NCBI GenBank assembly: GCA_021850485.1
Contig: JAJZLY010000005.1
Coordinates: 12,686-76,685, forward strand
Length of the DNA: 64,000 bases
Reading direction: 5' to 3'
Source of the DNA: Bacillota bacterium
Lineage (GTDB): Bacteria > Bacillota > Sulfobacillia > JAJZYS01 > JAJZLH01
This document shows positions 15,163-42,760 of the stretch, piece after piece. The translations under genes and the position numbers were made by a program. The notes under the pieces were generated by a model. That model ran no database searches and was not told where the DNA came from. It saw nothing but the letters and a program-made list of their open reading frames with translations. Every line of letters starts with the position of its first letter. Positions within the stretch are counted from its first letter, which is position 1.

Positions 15163-15553
15163 CTCCTTCGCTGGACTCATTTCGCACGATCACAGCGTCC
15201 CCGCGCAAAAGCGCCAAGGCCTCTCCCGCACTGATCTCGCCGGAGCGCAGCCGCTCCAAAACGGCCTCACCGGGAGACGGGCGACGCTCTTCAACCTCGC
15301 CACCCAGGGCCAGCACCAACTCATCGAGCCTGGATCGGAGTCCCGGGTAGGACAGATCCGTGATCCGCTCCAGGGCCTTCAGGTTGCCGCGGGCCCGAAT
15401 GAAGCGTTCGGCGAAAGTGGCCAATTCCGGGGTCAGTTCGGCGAACGGCACCCGAAAGTGGCCCTCGACCGACACCTGACAGCTATCGCAATACAGCCGG
15501 ACGGCAGTCAAGGGGCCGGCGCAGACGGGGCAAGAGGGCACGGGATGATCCAT
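15143..15553 (-). CDS. DUF2089 protein (zinc ribbon + HTH)
   Basis: CPVCAGPLTAVRLYCDSCQVSVEGHF is a zinc ribbon. It is followed by an HTH-like region. DUF2089 is commonly paired with DUF4097. Confidence 0.65.
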   Translation of the reverse strand: MDHPVPSCPVCAGPLTAVRLYCDSCQVSVEGHFRVPFAELTPELATFAERFIRARGNLKALERITDLSYPGLRSRLDELVLALGGEVEERRPSPGEAVLERLRSGEISAGEALALLRGDAVIVRNESSEGDGSDES

Positions 15554-15691
15554 ATCCTCACCTCACGGGATCATATATACACCACTTAGGATAAAAAAGT
15601 AACCTATTGATCGAAAATATGTCGCCTGCTCGCCACATGCTCCGGCACCAGGCCATCGGTTGCGTGGGTTATACTGAAGTCACCATCGGAG

Positions 15692-21622: not shown

Positions 21623-22382
21623 CCTTCCCGATTTCGATCTGAGGGGCCATGTGCATGAGCAGGGCGGACACCAGCCGAAACGCCTCCTTGGGGCCTTTTC
21701 CTCCCTTCCAGGACGCCGACTGTTCAGCCCAATAGGCCATCAGCAGGTCGACGAGGGCGCCTGTGAACTGGCTCTGGTGAGCCTGCAAGGCCGCCCGCTT
21801 GCGCTCCCAAAATGCACCGGCTGGCCAGAACAGGTTCGGCCGGCCGGTGGCGTACATCACGGCAAAGGGAGAGGAAACGGCTGGCCCCGCTTCTGGGAGC
21901 ACGTGCGGCAGACCAGCAGCCACCAGAGCGGCGGCGGCAGCCAAGCCCACGGTGCGGTGGTCGGGATGGCCCTCGTCCGGGAGCCAGGGATCGGGGAAAA
22001 ACAAAGCATCAGGCTTCTCCAGGCGGATCTCCCGCAAGATGCCCAGGGTAACCGCGCGCTCGTCCAACCAGGCGAAATCGGGAAAATCTAAAAACCGCAC
22101 CTCGTCGAGCCCGAGGATGGCAGTGGCTGCCCGCTCCTCATCTTGCCGGATGGCCGCCAGCTCGGGCGGTGACTGCTCAGGATCGATGCTCCCTTTATCC
22201 CCATTCGTGATGTCTACCACCACCACTCGGGCGCCGCCAGAAGCGAGATCTGCCAGTGTGGCGCCGGCGCCGATGGTGGCGTCGTCTTGGTGGGGAGCGA
22301 CCACCAGGACCCGGCTGGCGGTTCTCAAGTCAGGCCGGAGTTGAGTGGGGCCGATGCCCATGTCCATCCCCCCGTGCCGCAT
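21615..22382 (-). CDS. PIG-L/LmbE family N-acetylglucosaminyl deacetylase
   Basis: VLVVAPHQDDATIGAGATLA is the PIG-L zinc-binding HxDD motif. Start trimmed to ATG at 22382 (or 22367). The track ORF carries an N-terminal run-in. Confidence 0.75.
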   Translation of the reverse strand: MRHGGMDMGIGPTQLRPDLRTASRVLVVAPHQDDATIGAGATLADLASGGARVVVVDITNGDKGSIDPEQSPPELAAIRQDEERAATAILGLDEVRFLDFPDFAWLDERAVTLGILREIRLEKPDALFFPDPWLPDEGHPDHRTVGLAAAAALVAAGLPHVLPEAGPAVSSPFAVMYATGRPNLFWPAGAFWERKRAALQAHQSQFTGALVDLLMAYWAEQSASWKGGKGPKEAFRLVSALLMHMAPQIEIGKDD

Positions 22383-22689
22383 GCGATTACTCTTGCCTGA
22401 TTCGGGTCTGCAGCCGCCGCTCCTGTTGGAGCGGGGCGGTGCGGCTGAGGGCTCAGGAAGACTTTCCGGCGTGGACGGGCACGATCTTAGGCGCCGCCGG
22501 GCGACAGCCAAGCGTTGCCCGGTTTCGGACAGAGGTGGCAAGAACCGTCGCCTGGCGGATCAGGAACGAGAAGGACTAATTGGGTGAGAAATGGACAAAA
22601 GGGAAAATATGGAGTATAAAAAATATTAGTGGAAGAGTCAAGATGCCGGACGGCAGGCCCACTGCTGATCCCACGGAAGGTTGGTCGAG

Positions 22690-24390
22690 ATGAGCCAGTC
22701 CCCAAGAGCCAAGCGTCGTTTGATTCGATTCGTTCGATTGCGTGAGCGGGTCGTAGATATGGTGGCGCTGACCACCGTGGCCAGCTTGGTGCTTTTTGGC
22801 GGGTTGGTCGGTCCCGCGATGGCCAGCGCCAGTTCATCGCCGGCACCGATCTCGTTGCAAACCGCTGGCTCCTTCGCGATCCTGGCCCAGGCCGCAATCT
22901 CCAACAGCGGCGCTTCCGTGATCACAGGGAACATCGGGCTCTACCCGGGAACCTCGGAGACCGGCTTCTCGTCGGCTGTGGTGAACGGCACCACGTACAT
23001 TAACGACGCTACGGCCCAGCAGGCGATAGCAGATCTGTCCACTGCCTACAACACCGTGACGCCGGCCGGCACAGCCAGCGCAGGAGACACCAGCACGACG
23101 GTGGCTGGCGGTTTGCTCAACGGTCAAACCTTCGGCCCGGGGGTATACAACTACAGCTCCGGACTGGACTTGACCACCACGGTTACCCTGGACGCCTACG
23201 GTAACTCCAATGCCGTGTTCATCTTTCAGGCGGGCTCCACGCTGACCACGGCTTCGGCCAGCTCGGTCGTGCTGACCAATGGTGCCCAGGCCTGCAACGT
23301 CTTCTGGCAGGTGGGAAGCTCTGCCACCCTAGGTAGCACCACCGCCTTCGTCGGAACGATTATGGCGGCGACCTCGGCAAGTCTGGACCAGGGAGCGAGC
23401 GTGGACGGAAGAGTGTTGGCTGGAGCGGTAAACTCGACCGGCGCCGTCACCCTGATCGACAACGCCATCACGGTACCAACTTGCGCCAGCCCTACGACTA
23501 CAACCACCCCGACCCCGACCCCGACCTCGACCGCCCTCACCACAGCTGCCTCCAGTAGTACGATCACGCTCGGGAACAGCGTCACCGACGTTGCCACCGT
23601 GACAAGTGCTAACGGGGCCACCCCCAGCGGCTCGGTGCAGTTCTACGCCTGTGCCGTGGGCGATACGGCGTGCACCTCCTCGGCTGGCACCGCGCTGACG
23701 CCTGCCGAAACCCTGATCAACGGAGTTGCAACCTCGCCCAGCGTCACACCCTCGGCCGTCGGAACCTATTGTTTCGCGGCGGTCTACAGCCCCAGTAACA
23801 GTAGCTTTGCCTCCTCGTCAGAGACCAGCACCACCGCCAACACCGAGTGCTTCGCCGTGACTGCCACCCCCATCCCGACCATCACTACCACACCGTCCGC
23901 AACTGGGGTTGTTCTCGGCACCAGCGTCACAGACTCGGCCACCTTGGTCGGCACCACAGCGGGCGGCACGCCGACCGGCTCAGTACAGTTCTATGCCTGC
24001 GGACCGAACAGTGCCCTGTGTGCCCCTTCCCTGGGCACAGCGTTTGGTCCAAGTGAGCCCTTGGTCGGCGGCGCTGTTACCTCTTCGACCTTCACCCCAA
24101 CGCTTGTCGGCCTCTACTGCTTCTCCACGGCCTACAGCCCGAGTGGCACCACTTACGCCGGCGTCGCAGAGACTGGTAGTACGATCAATGGAGAGTGCTT
24201 CAACGTCACGGCGCCAGTCGTCATCCCCCCGGTCGTGGTACCGCCAGTCGTGGTGCCGGCCGCACACACCGGCGAGCCCTGGGCGGGCTGGGTCTACTGG
24301 GCGCTGATCGGAGCCGCCGGAATCTTAGGCATTACCCTGGCTATGCAAGGTGTAACCCGCCGTCGCTCCACCCGCCGCACCGAGCACTAA
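22690..24390 (+). CDS. Secreted, sortase-anchored surface protein with N-terminal DUF3494 (ice-binding-like beta-helix) domain, Thr/Pro linkers and two Ig-like Cys-containing repeats
   Basis: Signal peptide (...VASLVLFGGLVGPAMASA). SFAILAQAAISNSGASVITGNIGLYPGTS matches DUF3494. Two ~115-aa repeats (GSVQFYAC...C...YCF..YSP...ECF). C-terminal motif PAAHTG, a hydrophobic segment and an RRRSTRR tail form a cell-wall sorting signal. Confidence 0.7.
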   Translation: MSQSPRAKRRLIRFVRLRERVVDMVALTTVASLVLFGGLVGPAMASASSSPAPISLQTAGSFAILAQAAISNSGASVITGNIGLYPGTSETGFSSAVVNGTTYINDATAQQAIADLSTAYNTVTPAGTASAGDTSTTVAGGLLNGQTFGPGVYNYSSGLDLTTTVTLDAYGNSNAVFIFQAGSTLTTASASSVVLTNGAQACNVFWQVGSSATLGSTTAFVGTIMAATSASLDQGASVDGRVLAGAVNSTGAVTLIDNAITVPTCASPTTTTTPTPTPTSTALTTAASSSTITLGNSVTDVATVTSANGATPSGSVQFYACAVGDTACTSSAGTALTPAETLINGVATSPSVTPSAVGTYCFAAVYSPSNSSFASSSETSTTANTECFAVTATPIPTITTTPSATGVVLGTSVTDSATLVGTTAGGTPTGSVQFYACGPNSALCAPSLGTAFGPSEPLVGGAVTSSTFTPTLVGLYCFSTAYSPSGTTYAGVAETGSTINGECFNVTAPVVIPPVVVPPVVVPAAHTGEPWAGWVYWALIGAAGILGITLAMQGVTRRRSTRRTEH

Positions 24391-24445
24391 ACCGACGGCA
24401 CGGATCGTCCGTGCAGTTGGTAAACGCCACCCCCGCTGGTGGGGG

Positions 24446-25426
24446 GTGGCCGGCGCGTTGTTGGTGGTCGTCGCTGCGTTCGGTGTTGCCTACCCGCTGT
24501 GGTGGAACCAGCGAGCCGCCATCGGCGGGCGCACCCTGATGCAGAGGGTCCATACGCCCTCGCTGGCAGCCTGCAAGACCGCTGCGACGGATTCGTCCAC
24601 CAGCTCTGGCCCAGGCGTGCTGGCCATCCCGGCTATCGGCCTCGATGCCCCAGTGCTTCAGGGCCTGACCAACGCCGTCTTGGACGTGGCGGTGGGGCAC
24701 GATCCGGTGACCGTCTGGCCCGGTGGCCCAGGTGAAAGCGTGCTGCTGGCCCACGATGTCAGTTATTTCTCGGCCCTCGACCAGTTGCGGCCCGGTGACC
24801 TGGTGACCTGGACTGCAGGGTGTAACCAGGCCGTGTTCCAGGTGATCACCACCACAGTGACACAGCCGGGTGCCACCATACCGCTGCCCGCATCGGGATT
24901 TGGCCTGGCGCTGGTCACCTGTTGGCCAACCAACTCCCTCTTTTGGACCTCGCAGCGCTATATGGTGGAAACCAAACTGGTCTCGACCAAGACCCTGGCC
25001 CAGCCGGCCAGGGTCCTGGCGCAACCGCTGCTCGAACTGACCGTACCGGCTCCACCAGCACTGGTGAAGCTTGGCATTTCACCGACGGGAAGTGGGATTG
25101 GACTCGGTCGACTGGTCATTTCCGGCACACCGACTCAAGCCTTTGCCCAGAGTCCACAGCCACTGGTGGCGGCCAACGCCGCCCTGGAGGACTATGTCGC
25201 CGCCGAGAAGACTGCCGCCGCGGGCAATGCGAACTGGTGGCATGCCCTGGCTGTGGCCGATCTGCCGCTGCCGGCGCCGTGGTCGCTGTTCGATCGCACC
25301 AATGTCACGCTGATCGTCTCGGGTCAGACGGTGCAAGGAGTCGTCCTTTCCTCGCCTGCTAAGACGCTGACCCTGACCGTGCGCGCTGGCGTGTTGCTGG
25401 TGAGCCAGGTGAGTGCCGGTCAGTAG
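24446..25426 (+). CDS. Sortase (class E/F-like) with ~130-aa C-terminal extension
   Basis: N-terminal TM anchor. Catalytic His (LLAHDVSYFSALDQLRPGDLV). TLxTC motif (LALVTCWP). Conserved Arg (TSQRYMV). 326 aa, against about 200 aa for typical sortases. Confidence 0.85.
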   Translation: MAGALLVVVAAFGVAYPLWWNQRAAIGGRTLMQRVHTPSLAACKTAATDSSTSSGPGVLAIPAIGLDAPVLQGLTNAVLDVAVGHDPVTVWPGGPGESVLLAHDVSYFSALDQLRPGDLVTWTAGCNQAVFQVITTTVTQPGATIPLPASGFGLALVTCWPTNSLFWTSQRYMVETKLVSTKTLAQPARVLAQPLLELTVPAPPALVKLGISPTGSGIGLGRLVISGTPTQAFAQSPQPLVAANAALEDYVAAEKTAAAGNANWWHALAVADLPLPAPWSLFDRTNVTLIVSGQTVQGVVLSSPAKTLTLTVRAGVLLVSQVSAGQ

Positions 25427-25515
25427 GTACCAGCGCGTGCGGCCGCTGAGGCAACAAAGGCGGTCCAAAACGGCCGTGGCTTGACTGTGGCCGTGGTGTT
25501 GGGTACGCTCCGTAC

Positions 25516-25712
25516 CAACGCGATGAGCGGCAGGAGTAACTGGGCGGTGTGTGCAGAGAGGGGACGGACGGTGCAAGTCCCCACACCGGACAGTGAAGGT
25601 CAGCCGGGAGCGGCCCCTCGGGAGAGGGGACGGTCGGCACCGATAGCGGCCCCGAGTGACAAGACAAGGTGGTACCGCGGCACCCCCCCCGCCCTTGAGG
25701 TGAGGGGGTGTA
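25516..25712 (+). ncRNA. T-box riboswitch leader (valine specifier GUC) for valS
   Basis: Promoter TTGACT-17-TACGCT (25481-25509). Stem I K-turn/AGTA box (gcgatgagcggcaggagta). Specifier region ugaagGUCagcc. T-box core aaGGTGGTACCGCGg at 25667-25680. G/C-rich terminator 25681-25710. Confidence 0.7.
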
Positions 25713-25736
25713 TTGCATGTCTTGGGGGTGTCTCAC

Positions 25737-28337
25737 ATGGACAGTCGCTACGATCCGGCCAAGTTCGAGGCGCAGATCTACCAGCTGTGGCTGGACCACG
25801 GCGTGGCTAAGCCTGTCGCTGGCGGGCGGCGGTTCGTCTTGACCATGCCACCGGCCAACGTCACCGGGAACTTGCACATGGGTCACGCCCTCACCTACCC
25901 CACCCAAGACGCCGTGGTCCGCTTCCATCGCCTGCTCGGCGAAGAGGTGTTGTACGTGCCCGGTACAGACCACGCCGGGATCGCCACCCAACTGGTGGTA
26001 GAGCGCGAGCTGAAAAAGGAGCATCTGACCCGCACTGGACTGGGTCGAAGGGCCTTTGTGGATCGGGTCTGGCAATGGCGAGAGCACTCTGGTGGCCAAA
26101 TCCTGAGCCAGCTGCGCCGGCTAGGGGTGCTCGCCGACTGGGATCGGCTGGCCTTCACCCTGGATGCGGGACCCAGCCGGGCGGTGCGCACCTTTTTCCA
26201 GCGCGCCTACCACAAGGGGCTGATCTACCGCGGCGCCTATATCGTGAACTGGTGTCCGCGCTGTCGAACGGCGCTGTCCGATCTGGAGGTGGTACACCAC
26301 GACACCGCCGGCACCCTTTGGCAGATCGCCTACCCGGTGATCGGCACCGACCAGACGATCACCGTCGCCACCACCCGACCGGAGACCATGCTCGGCGACA
26401 CAGCCGTGGCGGTGCACCCGGACGACTCCCGGCACCGAGCACGGGTGGGACAGATGGTGCAGCTGCCGCTGACTGAGCGGCAAGTGCCGGTGATCGCAGA
26501 CGCAGCAGTCGACATGGACTTTGGCACGGGAGCCGTGAAAGTGACGCCAGCCCATGATGCCGATGACTTCGCCATCGGCATCCGCCACCAGCTGGAGCCG
26601 CTGGCTGTGATCGATGAAGACGGCAAGATGATCAATGTGCCGCACCGGTACCTGGGCCTTTCCACCACCCAGGCCCGAGAACTGGTCCTGAGCGAGTTGC
26701 AGGCCCAGGGCGTGTTGGTGGGGCAACAAGAGCACCTACACGCCGTCGGTCACTGCGAGCGCTGCGACACGGTGATCGAACCGCGCCTGTCCCAGCAGTG
26801 GTTCTTGTCGATGAAACCCCTGGCCGAGCAGGCCCTGGCGGCGGTCGCCCGCGGCGATGTCAGCTTCCACCCGGACCGCTTCACCAAGATCGCCAACCAA
26901 TGGCTGGAGAACATTCACGACTGGTGCATCTCACGCCAGTTGTGGTGGGGTCACCAAATCCCGGCCTGGTACTGTGCCGATTGCGGGGCGACGGTGGTGC
27001 CAGTGGCAGATGAGACGCCCAGTAGCTGCCCCAAGTGCGCCGGAACCCGCCTGACTCAGGATGAAGACGTGCTCGACACCTGGTTCTCGTCGGCCCTGTG
27101 GCCGTTTTCCACCCTCGGCTGGCCGGAGCAGACGGCCGACCTGGCACGCTACTTCCCGACCCAGACCCTGGTCACAGGAAGCGACATTTTGTTCTTCTGG
27201 GTGATCCGCATGCTGGTGGCGTCGTTGGAGCTGACAGAGCAGGTGCCCTTTGGTCAGGTGATGCTGCACGGCTTGGTGCGAGACAGCCAGGGACAAAAGA
27301 TGTCCAAGACCCGCGGCAACGGCATCGACCCCTTGCTCATGATCGAGCGCCACGGAGCCGATGCCCTGCGCTGGAGCCTGCTCACGGGAACTGCCCTCGG
27401 CCAAGACGTCAGAGGCTCAGAGGCGCGGGTGGTGGAAGGGAGAAACTTCACCAACAAGATCTGGAACGCGGCCCGGCTGCTGGTCCAGCAACCCGGCGAT
27501 CGTGCCGATCCGGCCGGTGCCAACCAGCGCATCGACCGCTGGCTCCTAGACTGCGTGGCCGAGACAGCCGAGGCGGCCCGTGCGCTGCTCCTCTCCTATG
27601 AGCTGGGGGCCGGCGCGGCGCGCATCCAAGACCTGTTTTGGGACCGTTTTTGCGACGTCTACCTGGAAACGCTCAAGGGCAGGCTGAACGGCCCAGACGG
27701 CCCGGCTGCCCTGAGCTTGGCCAACTCCGTCTTAGCCGATTGCCTGATCATGCTTCACCCCTTCGTTCCCTTCGTCACCGAAGCGATCTGGCAGTCGCTC
27801 AGGCAGACTGAGCGTCTGGTGGCCACGGCCACCTGGCCCGCACCTGAGCAGCGCTACCCCGTGGAACGCCGGCAGATCGATCAACTGTTGGATCTGGTAC
27901 GGGCCATCCGCAACCTGAAGGCGGATGCTGGCGAAGCGGCCAGCCGCACCGTGCTGGTGCGGGTGCACGCCCATGACCAGAGTGCAGCCTTGATCCAAGA
28001 GGAGGCAGGCTTGATCGCCCATTTGGCGGGGTGCGAGTTGGTTTTGGCCGGTGAGGGTGATGCGGTGTGGGAGAAGGCGCTGTCCGCCCGCACGGACGTG
28101 GCGGACGCCTACCTGCGGGTGGGGGAGGCGGCGAGCCAAGAGCTCGGGCGCCTGGAGCGCGATCTGGCCACATTGGCGGAAGAGATCGGGCGGGTCCAAG
28201 GCCGCTTGGACAGTGCAGACTTTTTGGCCCATGCCCCTGCGGCTGTGGTGGAAAAAGAGCGCGCTCGCCTCCAGGAGCTGGCTGCAAAACACCAGCGGGC
28301 GTTGGATCGCCGCCGTCTGCTTCAGGGCGGCCAGTGA
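25737..28337 (+). CDS. valS: Valyl-tRNA synthetase
   Basis: HMGH motif (PPANVTGNLHMGHAL). KMSKS (KMSKTRGN). C-terminal coiled coil. Start placed at ATG 25737 after the leader terminator. The track ORF starts inside the terminator. Confidence 0.95.
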   Translation: MDSRYDPAKFEAQIYQLWLDHGVAKPVAGGRRFVLTMPPANVTGNLHMGHALTYPTQDAVVRFHRLLGEEVLYVPGTDHAGIATQLVVERELKKEHLTRTGLGRRAFVDRVWQWREHSGGQILSQLRRLGVLADWDRLAFTLDAGPSRAVRTFFQRAYHKGLIYRGAYIVNWCPRCRTALSDLEVVHHDTAGTLWQIAYPVIGTDQTITVATTRPETMLGDTAVAVHPDDSRHRARVGQMVQLPLTERQVPVIADAAVDMDFGTGAVKVTPAHDADDFAIGIRHQLEPLAVIDEDGKMINVPHRYLGLSTTQARELVLSELQAQGVLVGQQEHLHAVGHCERCDTVIEPRLSQQWFLSMKPLAEQALAAVARGDVSFHPDRFTKIANQWLENIHDWCISRQLWWGHQIPAWYCADCGATVVPVADETPSSCPKCAGTRLTQDEDVLDTWFSSALWPFSTLGWPEQTADLARYFPTQTLVTGSDILFFWVIRMLVASLELTEQVPFGQVMLHGLVRDSQGQKMSKTRGNGIDPLLMIERHGADALRWSLLTGTALGQDVRGSEARVVEGRNFTNKIWNAARLLVQQPGDRADPAGANQRIDRWLLDCVAETAEAARALLLSYELGAGAARIQDLFWDRFCDVYLETLKGRLNGPDGPAALSLANSVLADCLIMLHPFVPFVTEAIWQSLRQTERLVATATWPAPEQRYPVERRQIDQLLDLVRAIRNLKADAGEAASRTVLVRVHAHDQSAALIQEEAGLIAHLAGCELVLAGEGDAVWEKALSARTDVADAYLRVGEAASQELGRLERDLATLAEEIGRVQGRLDSADFLAHAPAAVVEKERARLQELAAKHQRALDRRRLLQGGQ

Positions 28338-29587
28338 GCGTCCGGTCCACCATCCGCCGGCTGCACAGTCGGGGCCGGTTCGGCGAGTTGGGCCTGGAGC
28401 GGATGGAGCGCCTGATGGCCAATCTGGGCCAGCCGCAAGACGCCGTGCCGGCCATCCATGTGGCTGGTACCAACGGCAAAGGCTCGACGGCTGCCATGGT
28501 CGAGGCGGTATGGCGCCAGGCCGGCTTCCGGACTGGGCTCTACACGTCTCCGCACTTGGTGGACTGGCGAGAGCGGATCCAGGTCTCAGGACAGCGGATC
28601 TCGCCCCGCCTGTTGGCTGAGCATTTGGCGACGGTCGAGCGGGCCTTGGGCCAAGAGCAAGATCCGCTCACCGAGTTCGAGGCCTGGACGGCGGTCGCAT
28701 TTATGCACTTTCGCCACCGTCAGGTGCACCGGGCGGCGATCGAGGTGGGGTTGGGTGGCAGGCTCGATGCCACCAATGTGCTGCACCGGCCGCGGGCGGC
28801 GGCGATCGTGACCATCGGCCTGGACCATGTGCAGCGGCTGGGTGGAACGCTCGATGCCATCGCCTGGGAGAAGGCTGGGGTGGCCAAGGCCGGTGTGCCG
28901 CTGGTCGTTGGCTGGCTGCCGCCCCAAGCGCTGCACGTGGTTCAAGAGCGCGCCGCTCAGGTTGGCGCGCCCGTGATCCTGGCCGGGCGCGACTTCACCT
29001 ATTCGGGCCACGGTGCCCAGTGGCAATTTGCCGGCCTGGGCCGACGCGTCCGGGCGGCGCTCTCGCTCAGCGGCACCTATCAGGCGGAAAACGCCGCCGT
29101 CGCAACGGCGCTCTTGGTGCTTGCCGACCCCGACCTCGGCCCCGACCAGATCCGGTCGGGGCTCGAAGTAGCCCGCTGGCCGGGGCGCATGGAGCGGGTC
29201 AGCGAACGACCCCAGGTGTGGCTGGATGGCGCGAAGAACCCCCTGGGCACACAGGCTCTGCGCCGTCACCTAGATCAGGTGGCAGCCGGAAAAGGGGTGC
29301 GGCTGGTGTTTGGCTGCCTGGATGAGCGGGATCCAGCGGCGCTTTTGGCCCCGCTGGCCGACCGGGTCGAGGAGTTGATGCTGGTGCCTATCCACGATGC
29401 CCGGGCTTTGCCGTCGGCCCAACTGGTGGCGGCAGCCCAGACGCTCGGGCTGAAAGGACGCCTGGGTACCCTGGGCCAGGCCGCCCGTTTTCTGTTGGAG
29501 ACGCCCGACAGCCAAGTCGGGGTCGGCACAGGGTCGTTTTATTTGGTCGGCCCGCTGCGCCGCTTGATCTGCGGGGCGCGATCCTGA
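28334..29587 (+). CDS. folC: Folylpolyglutamate synthase / dihydrofolate synthase
   Basis: GTG overlaps the valS stop (GTGA). P-loop HVAGTNGKGSTAAMV. Mur-ligase family. valS-folC adjacency as in Bacillus. Confidence 0.85.
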   Translation: MSVRSTIRRLHSRGRFGELGLERMERLMANLGQPQDAVPAIHVAGTNGKGSTAAMVEAVWRQAGFRTGLYTSPHLVDWRERIQVSGQRISPRLLAEHLATVERALGQEQDPLTEFEAWTAVAFMHFRHRQVHRAAIEVGLGGRLDATNVLHRPRAAAIVTIGLDHVQRLGGTLDAIAWEKAGVAKAGVPLVVGWLPPQALHVVQERAAQVGAPVILAGRDFTYSGHGAQWQFAGLGRRVRAALSLSGTYQAENAAVATALLVLADPDLGPDQIRSGLEVARWPGRMERVSERPQVWLDGAKNPLGTQALRRHLDQVAAGKGVRLVFGCLDERDPAALLAPLADRVEELMLVPIHDARALPSAQLVAAAQTLGLKGRLGTLGQAARFLLETPDSQVGVGTGSFYLVGPLRRLICGARS

Positions 29588-29691
29588 TGGCTAGGCGGCG
29601 CAGCCGGCGGCGGCGGCTCGGCCTCACCTTATTGGTCTGGGCCATCGCCTTTGCTGGTGGCTGGTACCTGGCTGGCCGCCTATTCCTCTAG
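29587..29691 (+). CDS. Putative 34-aa single-TM peptide (MARRRSRRRRLGLTLLVWAIAFAGGWYLAGRLFL)
   Basis: ATG overlaps the folC stop (TGATG). It has a positively charged N-terminus and one hydrophobic helix. It is below the ORF-track length cut-off. Speculative. Confidence 0.25.
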   Translation: MARRRSRRRRLGLTLLVWAIAFAGGWYLAGRLFL

Positions 29692-29760
29692 GTCCAGTGC
29701 TGAGAGGAGATGCGGTTTCGGACCCGAAGTCGACCGAGCCGACCGCAAAGGAGGCTATCG

Positions 29761-30003
29761 ATGCAGCGGCGTCATCAGCGCCCGCACTGGGGATACTGGG
29801 TTGCCGGCCTGGCCGGCCTGATCATCGGCACCGTGATGGGCCAGGCACTCAGCCCGGTAGCCGGTACTTGGCTGGGGCATGCCATCGTGATCTCACCGTG
29901 GACCGTCAATTTGTACGTCCTTGGCTTCACCATCTTCGTGAAGACCAATCCGGCCGGCCTGCTGCTCGCGGTCCTGGCTGTGTTTATCTATGGCGGCGTC
30001 TAG
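29761..30003 (+). CDS. Small membrane protein (80 aa, two TM helices)
   Basis: RBS aaggagg lies 7 nt before ATG 29761. HWGYWVAGLAGLIIGTVMG... is hydrophobic. Confidence 0.45.
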   Translation: MQRRHQRPHWGYWVAGLAGLIIGTVMGQALSPVAGTWLGHAIVISPWTVNLYVLGFTIFVKTNPAGLLLAVLAVFIYGGV

Positions 30004-30020
30004 CGGGAGGTCCGGCCCAG

Positions 30021-30719
30021 GTGGCCGGCCGCAAGAATCCGGGCCTGCCCAGAGAGCGGCTGTTCACCAAGGGTGCCTCCGCCCTTAGCGATCGCGAGCT
30101 GGTGGCGATCTTGTTGCGTACCGGCCGCCGTGGGATGCCGGTTCTGGCCCTGGCTGACCAGCTGCTGAGCGAGGGGTTGGATCGACTGTTTTGGTCCTCC
30201 CCCGAGGAATTGGTGCGCCGGGCCGGGATCGGTCCGGCAAAGGCAGCAAGCTTGTGGGCTGCCTTCGAACTGGGCCGCCGGATAGGGCTTCCGGCACAGC
30301 CGGCGAGACCCCGGTTGAGCGACCCGCAGCAGGCTGCCAGCCTGCTGCGCCACCACTTTGCGCCAGAGCGCGAGGAGCTGCGCGCTTTGTACCTGGATCG
30401 CTCCTTGCGCCTGCTTGACGAACGCGTGATCAGCCAAGGCGGGCGCAACTGGACCCATGCTGAGCCGGCGGATGTGTTCGGTCCGGCCCTGCGACTGGGT
30501 GCATCGGCGGTGATTTTGGCTCATAATCATCCGGGCGGCGACATGGTGGCCTCGTGGCAGGACCGCGCGGCAACCGAGCGGCTGTGCCAAGTGGGCGCCT
30601 TGCTCGGGGTCAGGCTTCTGGATCACCTCCTGATCACAGCCGCCGGCCACCTCAGCCTCGTGGCCCAGGATTCGGAGCAATCTGGCTGGCCTCAACGAAA
30701 GGAGCCCAGGCGGCGTTGA
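30021..30719 (+). CDS. radC: RadC-like JAB-domain protein (DNA repair protein RadC family)
   Basis: GTG at 30021 with RBS gggagg. HhH region [19 protein letters not shown] motif [12 protein letters not shown]. Confidence 0.85.
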
Positions 30720-31753
30720 ACCTGAGCGACATCTTCCGGCGGACCCTGTCCCGGGATCTCGGCATCGACCTCGGCACCGCCAACACATTGGTCTACCTGA
30801 GAGGACACGGCGTGGTGGTGGAGGAGCCATCGGTGGTGGCGATCGACACCAGCACCCGGGCCGTGCTGGCCGTTGGCCGCCAGGCCAAGGAGATGGTGGG
30901 GCGAACCCCCCGCCACATTCGCATTGTCAGGCCGATGAAAGATGGCGTGATCGCGGACTTTCAGATTGCCCAGAGCATGCTCAAGTATTTCATGGCCCAG
31001 GCCACGGGCGGCGCCCGCCTGTTTCACCCGCGGGTGGTGATCGCAGTTCCCTCGGGCACGACCAGCGTGGAGCGCAGGGCGGTGATCGAGGCCGCTCAGC
31101 AGGCTGGCGCCCGCATTGCCCTGCCCATCGTCGAGCCCTTCGCGGCAGCGATCGGGGCCGACTTGCCGGTCGGTGAGCCCACCGGCAACATGGTCGTCGA
31201 CATCGGCGGCGGTACCACCGAGGTGGCGGTCATCTCCTTGGGTGGGGTGGTCTTGTCCCAGTCGGTGCGCGTCGCCGGCGATGAAATGGACGAGGCGATC
31301 GTGAATTACGTGCGCAAGGTGTACAACGTGGCGATTGGCTATCAGACCGCCGAGCAGGTCAAGATTGCCGTGGGTGCGGCCACCGACGCCGGCGACGCCG
31401 GGCTGGAGATCTGCGGCAGAGATCTGGTGACCGGGTTGCCAAGACCGGTGCGCCTGCAGGCAACGGAGGTCCAAAAGGCCGTGGCTGAGCCGGTGGCGGC
31501 GATCGTTGCCGCCATTCGCCAGACCCTGGAGCGGACGCCGCCGGAGCTGGCGGCTGACATCATGGAGCGGGGCATCGTCTTGACGGGCGGCGGCTCGCTG
31601 TTGCGCAACCTCGACCAACTGTTGATCAAGGAGACGGGTATGCCCGTGCATCCTGCGGAAGACGGGCTGCGCTGTGTGGTACGCGGCACTGGCCGCTGTT
31701 TGGAGGAGCCGAAGTTCCTGGATCTCGTGAAAAAAGTTCAGCGGCAGGACTGA
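30716..31753 (+). CDS. mreB: Rod shape-determining protein MreB
   Basis: [13 protein letters not shown] actin-like motif. TTG start overlaps the radC stop. RBS aaaggag. Confidence 0.9.
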
Positions 31754-31756
31754 CGG

Positions 31757-32572
31757 ATGGGTCCCGGGGCAAGACAACGCTTTCTCGCCGCCATCAGCCT
31801 GACTGTGATCGTGGCGTTGTTGCTCGCCGGCACCTCCAAGGTCACCGGAGCGGCGATCAGTCTGTCGGCGGGTCTGTCCGAGGTGGCGGCACCGGCCGAG
31901 GGCGTGCTGGTGGGGGCCCTGTCCTCGGTCGGTGGCGTGGCGGCCGACCTGGCGGATATGTGGTCTGCCCAGCAGCAGGTCAGTGCCCTGCGTGCCAAAA
32001 ACGCCACGTTGCTAGGACAGATCGCCCAGATGCAAGCTGGCCAATACACGCTCAACCAGGTGCTACAGGTGCTGGCGCTCAGCCAGACCGCCGGGCTCAA
32101 GGGAAATACGGTGGCAGCCTCTGTCGTCGGTCGCTCTCCGGACACCTGGTTTGACACCTTGTGGATCGACCGCGGCAGCCAAAGCGGGATCCGCGTCGGC
32201 GATGCGGTCTTGTCGGTGGGCGGCGTGATCGGCCGGGTGCTGGCCGTGACGCCCAGCACGGCCGTGGTGCTGTTACTCGCCGACCCACAGAGTGCGATGG
32301 GTGTGATGGATGCGCGCACAGGTGCGACCGGCGTGGCGCTCGGCCAAGGCCGGGCGAGCACGCTCGAGTTGCAGTTTTTCACCGGCAACGCCCAGGTGCG
32401 CCCCGGTGACTTGATCGTCACATCGGGCCTGGGACGCCCGATCCCAGCGGGGCTGCTGGTCGGCCGGGTCAGCGCCCTGGGCAAGGCTGAACTGGGGCTG
32501 GTCAAGACGGCCACCGTGGTTCCTCACGCGGCCCTGGCCCAGGTGCAGACGGTGCTGGTCGTAACCAGATGA
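31757..32572 (+). CDS. mreC: Rod shape-determining protein MreC
   Basis: N-terminal TM segment, coiled-coil region and C-terminal beta domain. Sits between mreB and mreD. Confidence 0.8.
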   Translation: MGPGARQRFLAAISLTVIVALLLAGTSKVTGAAISLSAGLSEVAAPAEGVLVGALSSVGGVAADLADMWSAQQQVSALRAKNATLLGQIAQMQAGQYTLNQVLQVLALSQTAGLKGNTVAASVVGRSPDTWFDTLWIDRGSQSGIRVGDAVLSVGGVIGRVLAVTPSTAVVLLLADPQSAMGVMDARTGATGVALGQGRASTLELQFFTGNAQVRPGDLIVTSGLGRPIPAGLLVGRVSALGKAELGLVKTATVVPHAALAQVQTVLVVTR

Positions 32573-33057
32573 CAACTCGCCCCGGCCGGGCTTGGGCGCT
32601 GCTGGTGGCCGCCGTCTTGGTGCAGACCGCGCTCGGCGTGGTGTGGCCGTCATTGGTCTGGATGCCGGACCTGATCGGGGCGGTGGTGATTGCGACGGCG
32701 CTCGAGCACGACCGTTCGACCTCCTTGCTGGTCGGGCTGGCCGCTGGTGCCTGGCAGGACCTCAGCCTGGGCCGCCTGATCGGCCTGCACACCTCACTGT
32801 GGGCTGTGACTGGCTATGCGGTCAGTTCACTGCGCATCCGGATGGGGTCTGACTCTTGGCTTGTCACCATCTGGATGGCGCTGGCTGTGCTGGTCGCTGA
32901 ACGCCTGGGCGAGTGGGTGGTGCTGACCCTGGTGGGAGTGGCAGTGGCGCCCTTGATCGTGCTGCTGGGCGCCAGCGTGGTTACCGTACCGTTCGTCTTG
33001 TTGTTCCGCCGCCTGATGCGGGTTGGCCGATCGGGCCTGAGACGAGCGATACCATAA
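32569..33057 (+). CDS. mreD: Rod shape-determining protein MreD
   Basis: 162-aa polytopic membrane protein. Overlaps the mreC stop. Conserved position. Confidence 0.7.
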   Translation: MTTRPGRAWALLVAAVLVQTALGVVWPSLVWMPDLIGAVVIATALEHDRSTSLLVGLAAGAWQDLSLGRLIGLHTSLWAVTGYAVSSLRIRMGSDSWLVTIWMALAVLVAERLGEWVVLTLVGVAVAPLIVLLGASVVTVPFVLLFRRLMRVGRSGLRRAIP

Positions 33058-33121
33058 GTCCTGCGGTTGTGGTTTCATCCATATAGGCCCCGTCCGCATC
33101 CCGCACCCACACGAGGTCGAC

Positions 33122-35026
33122 ATGCCACAAGGAGAACGTCAACGCCGGATCCGGATCCTGGCCGTCTTCGGCTTGTTGCTGGCGGCACTGTTGGTCTGGC
33201 GCGTGCTGGCGGTTTCATTGGTCTTGGGTCCACCGCTGGTCCAACTGGGCGATCAGTTTCGGATTCGCACCATGCCGGTGGCGGCCCCGCGCGGCGCCAT
33301 CTACTCGCGCAGCGGCAAATTGCTGGTCACCAGCGAGCCGTCCTTCGCAGCCTACTATTTTCGGGTTGGCGGCCCACCCAGCCTGGGCGAACAGAAGACC
33401 CTGGAGGCCGACTTGGGGATCACACCTCAGGCCATGACGAAGGCGCTGTTCATCTTTTCGACAGAGCCCTCCTTGCCAGTGGTCTTGAAGAGCGGGCTCA
33501 GCCCCTCTGAGCTGACGCAGCTGCTGCAGGGTCTGCCTGAGTTGCCAGGTGTGTTTGTCAATCCGCAGCCAGTGCGCAACGATTTGCTCGGATCAGTGGG
33601 CGGGCAGATGATCGGCTACGTCAGCCGGGTGACCGCCCCAGAGTTGGCGGCTTGGAAACTACCCGGATTGACCGCCGCTTCGGTGGTCGGCCAGACCGGT
33701 CTGGAGCTCGCTTATCAGAACCAGCTGTTCGGTCGGCCCGGTGGTGAAAAAGTGGAAGTCAATGCCAACGGTCTACCAGTGAAAGTTCTCGGCACCACGC
33801 CACCTGTGCCCGGTGATTCATTGACCCTGACCATCAGCAAGACGCTGGAGCAGATTAGCGCCAAGGCGCTGCTGGCTGATATGGCCATGCTCCGCAAGCA
33901 GTACGGCAGCCAGTCGGCCGTGCTGTCCGGGGCGGTGGTGGTGGTCGATATTCACACCGGCGCCGTTTTGTCGATGGTGTCTGAGCCCAGCTACAACCCC
34001 AACGCCTTTGCCCAGGGCATCTCCACGGCTGCCTACCAGGCGCTGGCCCAAAATCCGGGCCTGCCATTTCTGAATCGGGCAGTCCAAACCGCCTCACCAC
34101 CCGGATCGGTGTTCAAGATGGTGACTGCCATGGCCGGTCTGACCGCCGGCAAGATCACGCCGACCTCCACCATCACCTGCTTGCCCCGTTATTGGCGGCC
34201 GCCTTACCCATACAACTGGTTGCGGCGCACCTCCACTGGTCCCAATACCCTGGTCAAGGCCATCGCCCAGTCTTGCGACACCTACTTCTACGCCGTCGGT
34301 CACCGCGTCGGCATCAATGCCATCGCCGACTGGGCCCATAAGTTCGGCTTTGGCCATCCCACCGGCGTCGATCTGCCCGGCGAGGTGGCCGGCGTGATTC
34401 CCACTGTCGCCTACTACGAGAAGCAATACGGCTCCTTGTACCCCGGCCTGGCCTATTCGGTGGCCATCGGCCAGGGGGCGGATGAGGTGACCCTGATGCA
34501 ACTCGCCCAGTACATCGGAGCCCTGGCCACCGACGGCACCATGGTCAAACCCTATCTGGTCCAGCAGATCAAAAGCCCCAGCGGCAAGGTGCTGTTTAAC
34601 GCCACACCCCAGATTGTGGGCCACATCAGTGCGCCGTTGGCCTATTGGAGCGTGATCCGCCAGGGCATGATCGACGTCACCACGCCCGGCTCCATCCCAG
34701 GCCCGGGCGGCACGGCCGGCGGCGCCTTTGTGAACTTTCCGATGCAGGTGGCAGCCAAGACTGGTACCGCTCAGCTGCCGGGCGGGGTCAAGGGCGGGCA
34801 GGGCTATATGACGTTTTTCATTTCCTACGCCCCGGCCAACAACCCGCAGATCGCCGTGGTTTCGACCATGCAGACGGTCTCCATGGTCGCCGGCGGCATG
34901 ATCGCCAGGGCCATCTATGACGCCTACTTCCACCTGCACGACCCCAATCCGCCCTTCCCCCAGGTTGTCACTCCGACCACGCCGCCCACCACCCCCGCCC
35001 AGACGGCCGCAACGGCGGCACCGTGA
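33122..35026 (+). CDS. mrdA: Penicillin-binding protein 2 (elongasome transpeptidase)
   Basis: 634 aa. SxxK (ASPPGSVFK). SxN. KTG (AAKTGTAQ). Confidence 0.9.
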   Translation: MPQGERQRRIRILAVFGLLLAALLVWRVLAVSLVLGPPLVQLGDQFRIRTMPVAAPRGAIYSRSGKLLVTSEPSFAAYYFRVGGPPSLGEQKTLEADLGITPQAMTKALFIFSTEPSLPVVLKSGLSPSELTQLLQGLPELPGVFVNPQPVRNDLLGSVGGQMIGYVSRVTAPELAAWKLPGLTAASVVGQTGLELAYQNQLFGRPGGEKVEVNANGLPVKVLGTTPPVPGDSLTLTISKTLEQISAKALLADMAMLRKQYGSQSAVLSGAVVVVDIHTGAVLSMVSEPSYNPNAFAQGISTAAYQALAQNPGLPFLNRAVQTASPPGSVFKMVTAMAGLTAGKITPTSTITCLPRYWRPPYPYNWLRRTSTGPNTLVKAIAQSCDTYFYAVGHRVGINAIADWAHKFGFGHPTGVDLPGEVAGVIPTVAYYEKQYGSLYPGLAYSVAIGQGADEVTLMQLAQYIGALATDGTMVKPYLVQQIKSPSGKVLFNATPQIVGHISAPLAYWSVIRQGMIDVTTPGSIPGPGGTAGGAFVNFPMQVAAKTGTAQLPGGVKGGQGYMTFFISYAPANNPQIAVVSTMQTVSMVAGGMIARAIYDAYFHLHDPNPPFPQVVTPTTPPTTPAQTAATAAP

Positions 35027-36153
35027 CCCTACGCGAACTGCTGCGCGGCTTGGACGGCTGGCTGATCGGGGCTGCCCTAGGGCTTTGCGCCCTGTCGGTG
35101 GTGACGTTGGCCCTGACCACGCCCAACTTGGTGCCGGGCTCGCCCCTGTATTTGGCCAAGCACCAGTTGATTTGGGTGGTGGTCGGCCTGGTGGTGATGG
35201 CCATCATGATGTGGGTGCCACACACGTTGCTGCGCCGCTTCCGCTGGCTGATCTATGGGCTGACCCTGGCCATGCTGATGGTGGTCTTGGTGCACGGCCA
35301 GTCCGTGCTGGGTGCCCAGCGTTGGATCAACATCGGGCCGTTTCAGTTCCAGCCCTCCGAGTTTGCCAAACTCGGTGTGATCATCATCCTGGCTGACCTG
35401 CTGGAGAAAAAACGGGGGGCGATCCGCACTCTGCGCGACATGGCGCCGGCGATCGCCATCGCCCTGGTGCCGATGCTTTTGGTGATCAAGCAGCCAGACC
35501 TGGGCACGGCCCTGGTCATCGCCGGCATCTTGGGCGTGTTGCTGTACGAGGCCGGAGGGTCAGGGTGGAAGATTCTGGCGCTGTACGGTGGCACCGCCGG
35601 CTTCGTGGTGCTGCTGGTCTGGTTGCATGTGCAAGCCGGCTTCCCCCTGCCCCTGCATCACTATCAGGTGACCCGGCTTTTGGCTTTCGTCAACCCCAAC
35701 GCCGACCCGCTGGGCACCGGCTACAATCTGATCCAGTCTGAGATCGCCATTGCCTCTGGGCACCTCACGGGTGTCGGCGTGACCGAAATCAGCTCCCTGA
35801 TCTCGTTCCTGCCGGCTGCGGACACGGACTTCGCCTTCGCCTCACTGGGATTGGTCGGCGGTCTGCTGGCGATGGTGGCCGCACTCGGCCTGTACGCGGT
35901 GGTGGTCGGCAGGACGCTGGTCATTGCCCACCAGGAGACCGATGGCTACAGCAGTCTGATCGTGCTGGGGGCGGCCGCGCTCTTGACCATCCATGTCTTC
36001 ATGAACGTGGGCATGGCGACCGGTATCATGCCGGTGGTCGGCGTACCGGCGCCCTTTATCAGCTACGGCGGATCATCAGTGGTGACCGACTTTGCAGCCT
36101 TGGGCTTGATCTTGTCCAGCCGCTTGCACCGGGTGCATCTCAGCTTCCACTGA
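35023..36153 (+). CDS. rodA: Rod shape-determining protein RodA (SEDS family)
   Basis: 376 aa. FtsW/RodA/SpoVE family polytopic membrane protein. Follows PBP2. Confidence 0.9.
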   Translation: MTLRELLRGLDGWLIGAALGLCALSVVTLALTTPNLVPGSPLYLAKHQLIWVVVGLVVMAIMMWVPHTLLRRFRWLIYGLTLAMLMVVLVHGQSVLGAQRWINIGPFQFQPSEFAKLGVIIILADLLEKKRGAIRTLRDMAPAIAIALVPMLLVIKQPDLGTALVIAGILGVLLYEAGGSGWKILALYGGTAGFVVLLVWLHVQAGFPLPLHHYQVTRLLAFVNPNADPLGTGYNLIQSEIAIASGHLTGVGVTEISSLISFLPAADTDFAFASLGLVGGLLAMVAALGLYAVVVGRTLVIAHQETDGYSSLIVLGAAALLTIHVFMNVGMATGIMPVVGVPAPFISYGGSSVVTDFAALGLILSSRLHRVHLSFH

Positions 36154-36242
36154 CGGCCGCCGCAGGCGGCGAGGGAAGGAAGCAACTGGCAGTCAGAAGA
36201 AGCATGCGCTAACTTCTGCTGGCAAAGAGGGTGAAGGTCGCT

Positions 36243-37430
36243 ATGTTCCGTCGGGGCCGGAGCGTACGACTTTCAGCGTTGCTTTTTAGCTTGCTGGCGG
36301 CAGTCAGTGCCTGCGGCAATGTTGCAGTTGGCCCCCTCCCAGTGGTGGCAGGGGACTATCCGGTCCACCCGCTGCTCTCCACTCTGTGCCCGCCGCCTTC
36401 CGTTCACACCGTGACCGGCTTTGCTGGCGGCGGCCAGATTCTCGGCTACCAGCCGGGCTGGGGGATCTTGGTGGGTGCGAACCACCACGGCGGGCCTGGG
36501 GCGCACAGTCAGTACCAGCCGGGCCTGTACCTGGTCAATGCGGCCAGCGGGGCGGTTACTCGCCTGACCGCACTGGCGCTGGCGAACGGACAAAGTGTGC
36601 AAGCCGTGATCGGCGATGGTTGGGTGGTCTGGCTGAGGGCTGCCCCGGCCGGAGTAGGCCCATGGTCGCTGCAGGCACTCAATCTGGCCACCCACCGGCA
36701 GCAGACGGTGGACCGTGGGATGGCCGAAACCCGGCCCTTTGCCGCTCAGTTTGGTCCTCAGCGTCTGACCATCATCGGCGACACGCTGTATTTTCTGCTG
36801 GTGACGCCAGAGCGATCGGCGGTGCTGGCCTACGATTTCGCAACCGGCAGCCTGCGCACCGTGCTGGCGCTACCCGCCAAAGGCGGGCGCCAGATCCTGA
36901 CCATGGCCGCGACCGCATCAGGTCTTACCTATGTGGTCGGCTCGGCCGCATCTGCTGGCGGCGTGGCTGCGGGCGAGGTCTACTCACTGCCATTTGCATC
37001 CGGCCAATCCATCCCCCTGTTGAAACAGAAAAACGCGGCCTATGCGCTGGCCGTTGATGGGTCGACCCTGGCTCTCGCTCTATACAACCCGTCGATTCCG
37101 TTCCAGCGAGTGCTGCCCTATAGCTCGATCGTACTGTTTCGGCCGGGTGCCACCGCCCTGACCGATGTGGCAATCATGCCTGGGATTCGGGGCACCCCTC
37201 AATTTTGGTCGCACTATCTGGTGTGGGGGGCGGAGCCGGACCGGGGCGGGGTGTTGGACCTTGCCACCAACCAGGTCTACGTCTTGCCCAACTTGGGGTT
37301 GTTCTTCAGCCTGGGCGTCTACAACGGCATCCTCGGTTGGACCGGCGCCCTCTTCAAGCCAGCACCCACCGGCTCCAGCGCAGCCGTTACGGTGGTGCAG
37401 GACATCTCTTGGTGCTCCCTGGCCGGCTAG
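36243..37430 (+). CDS. Lipoprotein, hypothetical (beta-propeller-like)
   Basis: Signal peptide with lipobox LAAVSAC. No recognisable catalytic motif. Confidence 0.55.
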   Translation: MFRRGRSVRLSALLFSLLAAVSACGNVAVGPLPVVAGDYPVHPLLSTLCPPPSVHTVTGFAGGGQILGYQPGWGILVGANHHGGPGAHSQYQPGLYLVNAASGAVTRLTALALANGQSVQAVIGDGWVVWLRAAPAGVGPWSLQALNLATHRQQTVDRGMAETRPFAAQFGPQRLTIIGDTLYFLLVTPERSAVLAYDFATGSLRTVLALPAKGGRQILTMAATASGLTYVVGSAASAGGVAAGEVYSLPFASGQSIPLLKQKNAAYALAVDGSTLALALYNPSIPFQRVLPYSSIVLFRPGATALTDVAIMPGIRGTPQFWSHYLVWGAEPDRGGVLDLATNQVYVLPNLGLFFSLGVYNGILGWTGALFKPAPTGSSAAVTVVQDISWCSLAG

Positions 37431-37515
37431 CCGCGAAGATGGCCTGGCCAGGGCCAATGATGCATCTGCTGCAAGGATCTGGTACGATCAGGAAGTTAGG
37501 TTTGCGCTTTTTGGG

Positions 37516-39240: not shown

Positions 39241-39243
39241 CGA

Positions 39244-39711: not shown

Positions 39712-39856
39712 CTGCACCCCTCCGATCGGAGCCCAAGAGACACCACTCATTGTACGTCTTGGCCGCCGTCTGTGGGCCGATGAGTCGCTTGGCTGCTGGC
39801 CGGCCGTTATGGTACAGTACCAAGGTCTATGTGCCAGGCGACGCTAGGAGGCCGAC

Positions 39857-40479: not shown

Positions 40480-40483
40480 TCCG

Positions 40484-40790: not shown

Positions 40791-42760
<1,970 letters not shown>

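Follow-up and report, generated by a model that had tools for sequence, protein, structure and literature searches.

How might a protein of the ice-binding type be displayed on a Gram-positive cell when its C-terminus carries a sorting motif unlike those of the known sortases? The question is raised by two neighboring genes in a 64 kb stretch of DNA from a Bacillota bacterium (contig JAJZLY010000005.1), which we analyzed as a whole and refer to as the window. The first gene (22690..24390, plus strand, as all features of the pair) starts with an ATG at 22690 and encodes a putatively secreted DUF3494 protein of 566 amino acids (aa) with a sorting signal built around His-Thr-Gly (HTG). This length equals that of the public gene call for the identical sequence; the gene is contained in a TTG-started open reading frame (ORF) at 22681..24390. 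The second gene (24446..25426) starts 55 bp past the stop codon of the first and encodes a sortase of 326 aa. The window holds this one sortase and this one signal-bearing ORF, no more. An earlier sequence-only reading had proposed that the two genes form a dedicated module with a non-canonical recognition motif, and all features it listed are present in the sequence according to the ORF table, the domain matches and the GC windows. For comparison, a scan with one genome per species yielded 235 confirmed relatives, from which 80 loci were fetched. Taking all evidence together we consider it likely that the pair is a surface-display cassette, in which the DUF3494 protein is anchored through its HTG-type signal by the neighboring sortase.

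Known sortase classes are distinguished by the motifs LPXTG, NPQTN, LPXTA and LAXTG, and sorting signals have a tripartite layout (PMC8225981). The C-terminus of the window protein has three such parts behind a spacer: PVVIPPVVVPPVVVP is followed by AAHTGEPWAGW, a hydrophobic segment and TRRRSTRRTEH. The Pro/Val stalk PVVIPPVVVPPVVVP, read from the sequence, comprises aa 509-523 (24214..24258), and the Pro-rich stalk stretch already pointed out in the earlier reading is found as VVIPPVVVPPVVVP. The sorting motif P-A-A-H-T-G-E-P-W-A-G-W, delimited by position counts, alignment and profile search, occupies aa 523-534 (24256..24291). Next to it lie the hydrophobic membrane-retention segment (aa 535-555; 24292..24354) and the positively charged tail TRRRSTRRTEH (aa 556-566; 24355..24387), both delimited by the signal alignment. 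In this alignment of 37 signals the motif is followed by about 20 hydrophobic residues and these by a basic tail, all at the extreme C-terminus.

We assessed whether related sortases are accompanied by the same signal in 75 loci; five further loci offered too little upstream DNA to judge. In 53 loci a pattern search detected a signal ORF immediately before the sortase gene, in the same orientation and 20-390 bp away from it. In three loci it was located 1-1.5 kb upstream, and a relaxed search admitting long basic tails and the variants FTGEPF and TTGKPW added nine more. In total 65 of the 75 assessable loci (87%) have a signal ORF upstream of the sortase homologue. The signal is also visible in most loci when the unfiltered tails of all ORFs ending just before the sortase are inspected. 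Recurrence of this motif beside such sortases in 65 of 75 assessable loci excludes a chance origin.

Residue frequencies were counted over 48 unique signals, in which T (position 0), G (+1) and W (+4) were fixed by the search pattern and position -1 was restricted to five residues. Within these limits His was found at position -1 in 45 of 48 signals. Downstream of the TG, Glu occupies position +2 in 42 and Gly position +6 in 46 of 48; position +3 is P in 35 and W in 11 (P or W in 46/48), and position +5 is A in 32 and S in 12 (A or S in 44/48). Upstream, position -4 is either P (26) or T (22), while positions -3 (S/A/P/T) and -2 (V/A/S/T) are variable. The first two residues of LPXTG are missing from the signal: neither Leu nor Pro is conserved at -3/-2. 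The resulting consensus is [P/T]-x-x-H-T-G-E-[P/W]-W-[A/S]-G, followed by the hydrophobic segment and the Arg tail. T527, G528 and W531 are invariant in the substrate alignment. Based on the position counts the conserved unit is HTGEPWAG. The sequence-only reading had named PAAHTG; it was right that the motif is non-canonical and that this region is conserved, but the two Ala are variable, and conservation past the TG equals that of the His. We also noticed two signal subtypes (EPW…W-x-YW and EWW/EFW…S-x-P), which track sortase similarity.

An exhaustive search of the signal profile against 1.84 billion representative proteins returned 208 clusters at E ≤ 0.001, and in the matches listed the signal is located at or close to the C-terminus of the protein. 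The 97 longer matches have an invariant His and two invariant Gly, with T, E and W conserved to at least 90%. A word-indexed search with a 50-aa signal profile gave only 13 short fragments and is uninformative as a census. None of the NCBIfam sorting-signal models, including the LPXTG anchor, matched the full protein (E ≤ 0.01) or any of five signal tails (E ≤ 10), and HTGEPW is not mentioned in the searched literature. The comparison of the C-terminal motif across homologous substrates had been set beforehand as the test on which the anchoring proposal could fail; the motif region proved to be conserved beside homologous sortases.

The proteins carrying the signal are diverse. Among 55 neighboring substrates Ice_binding was found in 16; the remaining ones contain DUF11, Big_3_5, TIG, DUF7927, DUF7619 or other domains, and many have no Pfam domain at all. 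The 97 database proteins with the signal show a similar spread and in addition SpaA, MBG_2 and Beta_helix. A change of passenger can be followed between close loci. In two metagenome-assembled genomes (MAGs) labeled Sulfobacillus sp. (loci L081 and L082) the sortase is 89% identical and the locus is fully syntenic, with MFS, PIG-L, DUF3494, sortase, valS and folC. Locus L001, with a sortase identity of 72%, keeps the flanking genes of the window. Here the passenger encoded at 22690-24390 is replaced by an unrelated Ala/Thr/Ser-rich protein of 271 aa (L001:7085-7900). The exchange includes the signal peptide and the AT-rich stretch upstream, and homology is limited to the last ~50 residues (…PPVVVPSAHTGEPWAGWVYWLLIGAAG…), which are almost identical to those of the window protein. 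At the sequence level this looks like a cassette-type passenger swap in front of a fixed signal. As each locus has a single sortase and a single signal ORF, whose signal is kept across different passengers, the reading as a dedicated sortase-substrate module with a non-canonical motif holds. The term adhesin, which the same reading had used, is inferred from the kinds of domain present.

The substrates also vary widely in size. Three loci encode giant repeat proteins of 2000-2600 aa with an HTG signal (L014:1612-7965, L015:306-6326 and L020:1-7863), apparently among the DUF11 / Big_3_5 / DUF7933 matches. The smallest case (P0134) is a mini-protein of 98 aa comprising a signal peptide and the HTG signal. 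Several MAGs harbor more than one cassette: we found multiple cassettes in FK3.bin72 (L003, L038, L069) and MAS3.bin127 (L065, L073, L079), and two each in palsa_601 (L012, L016) and MFD10071.bin.2.60 (L021, L022).

Next to the signal, the second component is the enzyme. Its N-terminal membrane-anchor helix (aa 1-34; 24446..24547) contains the hydrophobic run ALLVVVAAFGVAYPLWW and is modeled by AlphaFold2 (AF2) as a helix from residue 2 to 34. The sortase catalytic domain, as delimited by PF04203, invariant columns and Foldseek, comprises aa 57-183 (24614..24994). The Pfam match to PF04203 (E 4e-16, 59.3 bits against a cutoff of 26.6) covers aa 59-179 only, leaving about 137 further residues of the sortase without Pfam assignment. 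A protein search returned 194 sortase homologues, nearly all of them 330-400 aa long and covering 94-100% of the query. Among 26 aligned homologues His103 (24752-24754), Cys159 within LVTCWP (24920-24922) and Arg171 (24956-24958) are invariant, as expected from the conserved His, TLVTC and Arg that the sequence-only reading had picked out, and this triad lines up with the sequences of class C/D structures. Two non-catalytic cysteines, Cys43 (24572-24574) and Cys126 (24821-24823), are likewise invariant in all 26 sortases and may form a structural disulfide. The AF2 model, built with the alignment of the 26 homologues, consists of a sortase barrel and a separately folded C-terminal alpha+beta domain. 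Foldseek searches with the whole model matched solved SrtA, SrtD, SrtE and SrtC (best E 4e-9, target TM-score up to 0.67). By domain match, triad and predicted fold the enzyme is a member of the sortase superfamily.

Assignment to a class failed. The enzyme stays below the NCBIfam cutoffs for class D (48.9 against 140 and 48.5 against 165 bits), GN (45.4/158), class E (44.7/160) and class C (34.9/160), and there is no match at E ≤ 0.01 to the models for classes A, B and F. Eight relatives were also below every class cutoff (best 71.8 against 140 bits), including ones that NCBI names 'class D sortase'. When the family profile was compared with PDB sequences, class C sortase structures ranked first (8t28, 57.5 bits). 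As judged by the curated models and by its motif, the enzyme is outside the named sortase classes and belongs to a distinct, unclassified subfamily.

A further hallmark of the enzyme is its C-terminal alpha+beta domain (aa 200-326; 25043..25423). The extension of ~130 aa had been described as absent from ordinary sortases; it is indeed present, and it is a trait of the whole family rather than of this one gene. Structure prediction, which had been suggested for this part, gave a confident alpha+beta fold (predicted local confidence, pLDDT, above 90), and the tryptophan pair W264/W265 is invariant among the 26 aligned homologues. The domain has no match in Pfam and no sequence match in the PDB. 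Comparison of its fold with the PDB gave nothing significant; the best matches, at E 0.22, are the CaMKII hub and VirB8-like domains, both of which are NTF2-like, and this is a resemblance only. In a profile search the domain was seen solely in sortases or their fragments. A free-standing version of the domain was considered and rejected, as every match outside the sortases proved to be a gene fragment or a sortase with a frameshift. More distant sortases of the family carry insertions of 6 and 12 residues in this domain.

The N-terminal part of the window substrate begins with a putative export signal (aa 1-47; 22690..22830), in which an Arg-rich n-region, a hydrophobic core and an AMA|S site can be recognized by eye. 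It is followed by the DUF3494 / IBP-1 beta-solenoid domain (aa 64-261; 22879..23472). Here the earlier assignment to DUF3494 was correct: Pfam PF11999 Ice_binding (formerly DUF3494) matches over its full length (profile positions 1-208 of 208) with E 2.1e-54 and 184.8 bits against a cutoff of 28.7. Solved ice-binding proteins are homologous to this domain, the closest being the antifreeze protein 6eio (E 3.6e-42), followed by 5uyt (E 1.2e-39) and 7bwx (E 5e-34). The NCBIfam ice-binding equivalog IBP_CFB remained below its cutoff (98 against 400 bits).

Behind a Thr/Pro linker (aa 266-281; 23485..23532, read from the sequence) two Ig-like repeats are located. Repeat 1 (aa 282-394; 23533..23871) contains Cys321/328 and Cys361/387, and repeat 2 (aa 395-510; 23872..24219) contains Cys437/444 and Cys477/503. 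The two conserved Cys-containing repeats had been noticed in the sequence-only reading, and repeat-to-repeat BLASTP confirms them with 50% identity (E 1e-28) and all four Cys aligned. The Big_3_5 (Ig-like) match of the repeat region is weak and below threshold (26 bits against a cutoff of 35.5). The paired Cys suggest disulfide-stabilised Ig-like spacers that would keep the beta-solenoid head off the wall. Of the 481 residues of the mature protein (aa 48-528), 56% are Thr, Ser, Ala or Gly. Lys is missing altogether, Arg and His occur once each, the His being that of HTG, and there are 11 Asp and 7 Glu. Such an extreme composition may reflect adaptation of an exposed protein to the surroundings of an acidophile.

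How could signal and enzyme work together? By analogy with characterized sortase systems, the DUF3494 protein would be exported via its N-terminal signal and held in the membrane by the C-terminal hydrophobic segment and the Arg-rich tail. The membrane-anchored Cys transpeptidase (His103/Cys159/Arg171) would then recognize …P-x-x-H-T-G-E-P-W-A-G…, and the peptide we take as the predicted sortase substrate is VVVPAAHTGEPWAGW. Cys159 would most likely attack after the Thr of HTG, and the protein would be transferred to the amine of a cell-wall (peptidoglycan) precursor. The predicted outcome is a beta-solenoid head on a stalk composed of two disulfide-bonded Ig-like domains and the Pro/Val spacer. 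One might speculate that the conserved E-P-W-A-G after the TG is read by the C-terminal domain, alone or jointly with the catalytic domain.

Several observations weigh against such an anchoring cassette. Ten loci contain the sortase and no recognizable signal ORF within 3 kb upstream. The AF2 model has a pLDDT below 50 for residues 73-106, a region that includes the catalytic His. The scissile bond, the acceptor and cleavage itself are all assigned by analogy. In addition, the strong conservation of EPWAG after the TG is atypical for sortase signals and could mean that cleavage takes place at another position or that the motif merely has a role at the membrane interface. The latter thought leads to an alternative in which the tail is just a transmembrane anchor with a conserved interface motif, the protein stays uncleaved, and the sortase has other substrates or none. 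The W-rich EPWAGW does resemble a membrane-interface belt, and the failure of the LPXTG models to recognize the tail fits as well, given that cleavage is assumed from other systems. An invariant TG and a near-invariant His just outside the membrane, tied strictly in 87% of the loci to a sortase with intact catalytic residues, would be hard to account for unless the enzyme recognized them. The motif is moreover retained when the passenger is swapped, and the loci offer no alternative substrate, so we regard a mere tail anchor as improbable.

Somewhat less remote, but still unlikely in our view, is that the HTG signal is processed and the protein is not attached to peptidoglycan: it could be released into the medium by hydrolysis, or a lipid, a glycan polymer or an S-layer could serve as acceptor. 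None of the characterized classes includes the enzyme, which carries an extra domain of no assigned function; its signal is conserved on the primed side in a manner unlike that of wall-anchoring sortases; and the usual description of DUF3494 proteins is that of soluble secreted proteins with one or two domains (PMC9957290). On the other hand, Ig-like repeats and a Pro/Val spacer right before the signal are the architecture of tethered surface proteins (PMC9957290), and characterized sortases are all transpeptidases (PMC8225981). The alternative to which we give the least credit is a pilus-type (class C-like) polymerase that would join substrate monomers head to tail via a Lys side chain. It would agree with the first rank of class C structure 8t28 for the family profile, with operons of one sortase and one substrate that resemble minimal pilus loci, and with the occurrence of SpaA in 4 and GramPos_pilinD1 in 1 of the 97 signal-bearing proteins. 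Yet the class C score is far below its cutoff (35 against 160 bits), the passengers are mostly Ig-like, DUF11 or beta-helix domains of the adhesin type, and the YPK pilin motif was found in none of 57 substrates. Because the mature window protein has no Lys, Lys-mediated polymerization is disfavored here, and we rejected pilus formation for this locus unless an N-terminal amine were to act as nucleophile.

Anchoring of the DUF3494 protein by its neighboring sortase has its closest analogue, as regards the logic, in the SrtB-IsdC system. The class B sortase of Staphylococcus aureus is likewise a dedicated enzyme beside its substrate IsdC, with a motif (NPQTN) that deviates from LPXTG and a three-part signal (PMC8225981). 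In contrast to class B, the window enzyme has no class B sequence match, carries the additional C-terminal domain of 130 aa and is located outside any iron-uptake context; its motif keeps the TG, with x-x-H in place of L-P-x and the conserved E-P-W-A-G after it. The best-scoring curated models for the window enzyme are those of class D (SrtD of Bacillus anthracis and Clostridium perfringens, LPXTA-type) and the GN 'marine' model TIGR03784, and some members of the family are annotated by NCBI as 'class D sortase'. GN sortases are also paired one-to-one with a neighboring target. The window enzyme and eight relatives nevertheless score 90-115 bits below these cutoffs, the signal differs, and the C-terminal domain is present in neither class. 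With the class E sortases of Actinobacteria, exemplified by SrtE1 of Streptomyces coelicolor with its LAXTG motif (PMC5148588), the family shares the occurrence in high-GC Gram-positives, the N-terminal membrane anchor and a signal deviating at the P position; SrtE structures from Thermobifida and Streptomyces are among the Foldseek matches of the model. Class E enzymes are, however, housekeeping sortases with many substrates, whereas members of the present family are paired with one neighbor, and the signals of this family do not conserve the Leu and Ala of LAXTG.

Tethered DUF3494 proteins are known from other lineages. In Nostoc the surface-tethered nIBP carries a PEP-CTERM signal (PMC7783341), and ice-binding proteins tethered through Ig-like domains occur in Shewanella frigidimarina and Marinomonas primoryensis (as cited in PMC9957290). 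As in the window protein, the head is displayed via a C-terminal sorting signal and/or Ig-like spacers. The difference lies in the sortase-type anchor signal and the Gram-positive lineage found here; the head of the window protein may bind ice or something else. No paper in the searched literature joins DUF3494 with a sortase or with LPXTG.

From these comparisons one may go further and ask whether the family constitutes another sortase class, as yet without a name. Its features would be the NTF2-like-looking C-terminal domain, the two extra invariant Cys, the one-to-one pairing and specificity for a longer recognition sequence, H-T-G-E-[P/W]-W-[A/S]-G. The enzyme, perhaps through its additional domain, would then also read the part of this sequence that follows the supposed cleavage point. 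We put this forward tentatively, with the balance tipping slightly to the other side. If true, the recognition logic would be unlike that of the known classes and the signal would provide a naturally orthogonal tag for sortase-mediated ligation.

The sequence-only reading had further pointed to an unusually AT-rich stretch in front of the pair and suggested strong or regulated expression, or horizontal origin. The stretch (22555..22650) is rich in purines and lies in the gap of ~300 bp between the divergent PIG-L deacetylase and DUF3494 genes. The 80-bp windows starting at 22561 and 22571 have 36% GC, which is indeed the lowest value in the 64 kb (mean 64.6%, standard deviation 5.1). It is extreme yet not unique, since intergenic patches near 5.9 and 15.6 kb reach 37-41% GC: 5851-5940 upstream of 2-oxoglutarate dehydrogenase E1 and 15531-15650 upstream of lon. 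From these two cases, AT-rich patches of this kind are a mark of promoter regions in the genome. Compared with L081, the stretch together with the 5' untranslated region (5'UTR; 22555-22689) is 98.5% identical, in contrast to 78% in the rest of the intergenic region and 90-95% in the flanking coding DNA. The difference within the intergenic region indicates functional constraint on 22555-22689. An AT-rich upstream stretch as a family trait was rejected: among the related loci examined a comparable low-GC patch was present only in L007, upstream of the substrate gene, and L001 has none. A riboswitch or leader RNA was also rejected, as an Rfam scan of 22300-22800 gave only a chance miRNA match (E 0.95).

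A candidate promoter for the DUF3494-sortase pair, found by eye, consists of TGGACA, a spacer of 17 nt and TATAAA (22592..22620, plus strand; 10/12 consensus matches), and the pair is probably co-transcribed from this promoter region at ~22590-22620. The promoter scanner missed it because it demands a T at position 6 of the second hexamer. The sole sigma-70-like match that the scanner reported in 22300-25800 points toward the PIG-L/MFS genes (TTGACT, 17 nt, TATACT; 22613..22641, minus strand; 10/12). The candidate -10 elements TATAAA (plus) and TATACT (minus) overlap on opposite strands at 22613-22620; if both promoters are real, they could compete for RNA polymerase. The predicted transcription starts lie near 22627 (plus) and 22606 (minus). 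A Shine-Dalgarno-like GGAAGG (22675..22680, plus strand) is located 9 nt before the ATG. The stretch reads as an ordinary, well-conserved divergent promoter with 5'UTR. Horizontal origin, the other part of the suggestion, is unsupported by composition. Both genes have a GC content of 0.64-0.65 and a GC content at third codon positions (GC3) of ~0.76, close to the GC3 of 0.75-0.80 in the neighboring genes; recent transfer is not indicated, since these values resemble those of flanking housekeeping genes.

The surroundings of the pair are core chromosome, with lon, valS, folC, mreB, mreC, pbp2, rodA, an Rne/Rng-family RNase and obg. The gene order valS-folC-mreB-mreC-pbp2-rodA-RNase-obg extends over 25713-42110, and in the syntenic locus L081 radC occupies the corresponding place behind folC. 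Such a gene order is typical of Bacillota and fits the Sulfobacillus labels. The fetched loci are labeled mostly as Acidimicrobiales/Acidimicrobiaceae MAGs and in some cases as Actinomycetes, Bacillota or Sulfobacillus; a cultured carrier is Aciditerrimonas ferrireducens JCM 15389 (L045). Because the record titles mix Bacillota and mostly Acidimicrobiales labels, an old spread of the cassette between the phyla is possible; inconsistent MAG labels would be the other explanation.

Some features elsewhere in the window were noticed in passing. The gap of ~300 bp between sortase and valS (25427-25733) is 94% identical to L081 and may contain a conserved leader before valS; it matched neither a T-box nor any other Rfam family. 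A SAM-I riboswitch (RF00162, 74.6 bits) is located at 60304-60420 on the plus strand, directly upstream of the ORF 60418-61836. A tRNA-Ala (GGC) at 44581-44656 is followed by ~3.5 kb (to 48300) in which several patches are low in GC (44-45% at 44.7 and 48.0 kb) and few ORFs show the codon bias of the genome. The region 44581-48300 may be a small integrated element or its remnant.

Overall, the sortase/substrate variant described here is real, recurrent and undescribed within the searched literature and the curated libraries, with its chemistry modeled on that of known sortases. It would extend the known recognition repertoire (LPXTG, LAXTG, NPQTN, LPXTA) by a signal with His at the variable position and conservation past the TG, served by an enzyme with an additional domain. 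Enzyme and signal are a candidate orthogonal ligation pair for protein engineering. Within the searchable literature it is the first case in which the widespread DUF3494 domain is wired to a sortase anchor. For the organisms themselves, the cassette gives a view of surface-protein display in poorly studied Gram-positives of acidic and soil habitats, the Acidimicrobiia and Sulfobacillus-like Bacillota, where the signal seems to stay in place while the passenger domains before it are exchanged.

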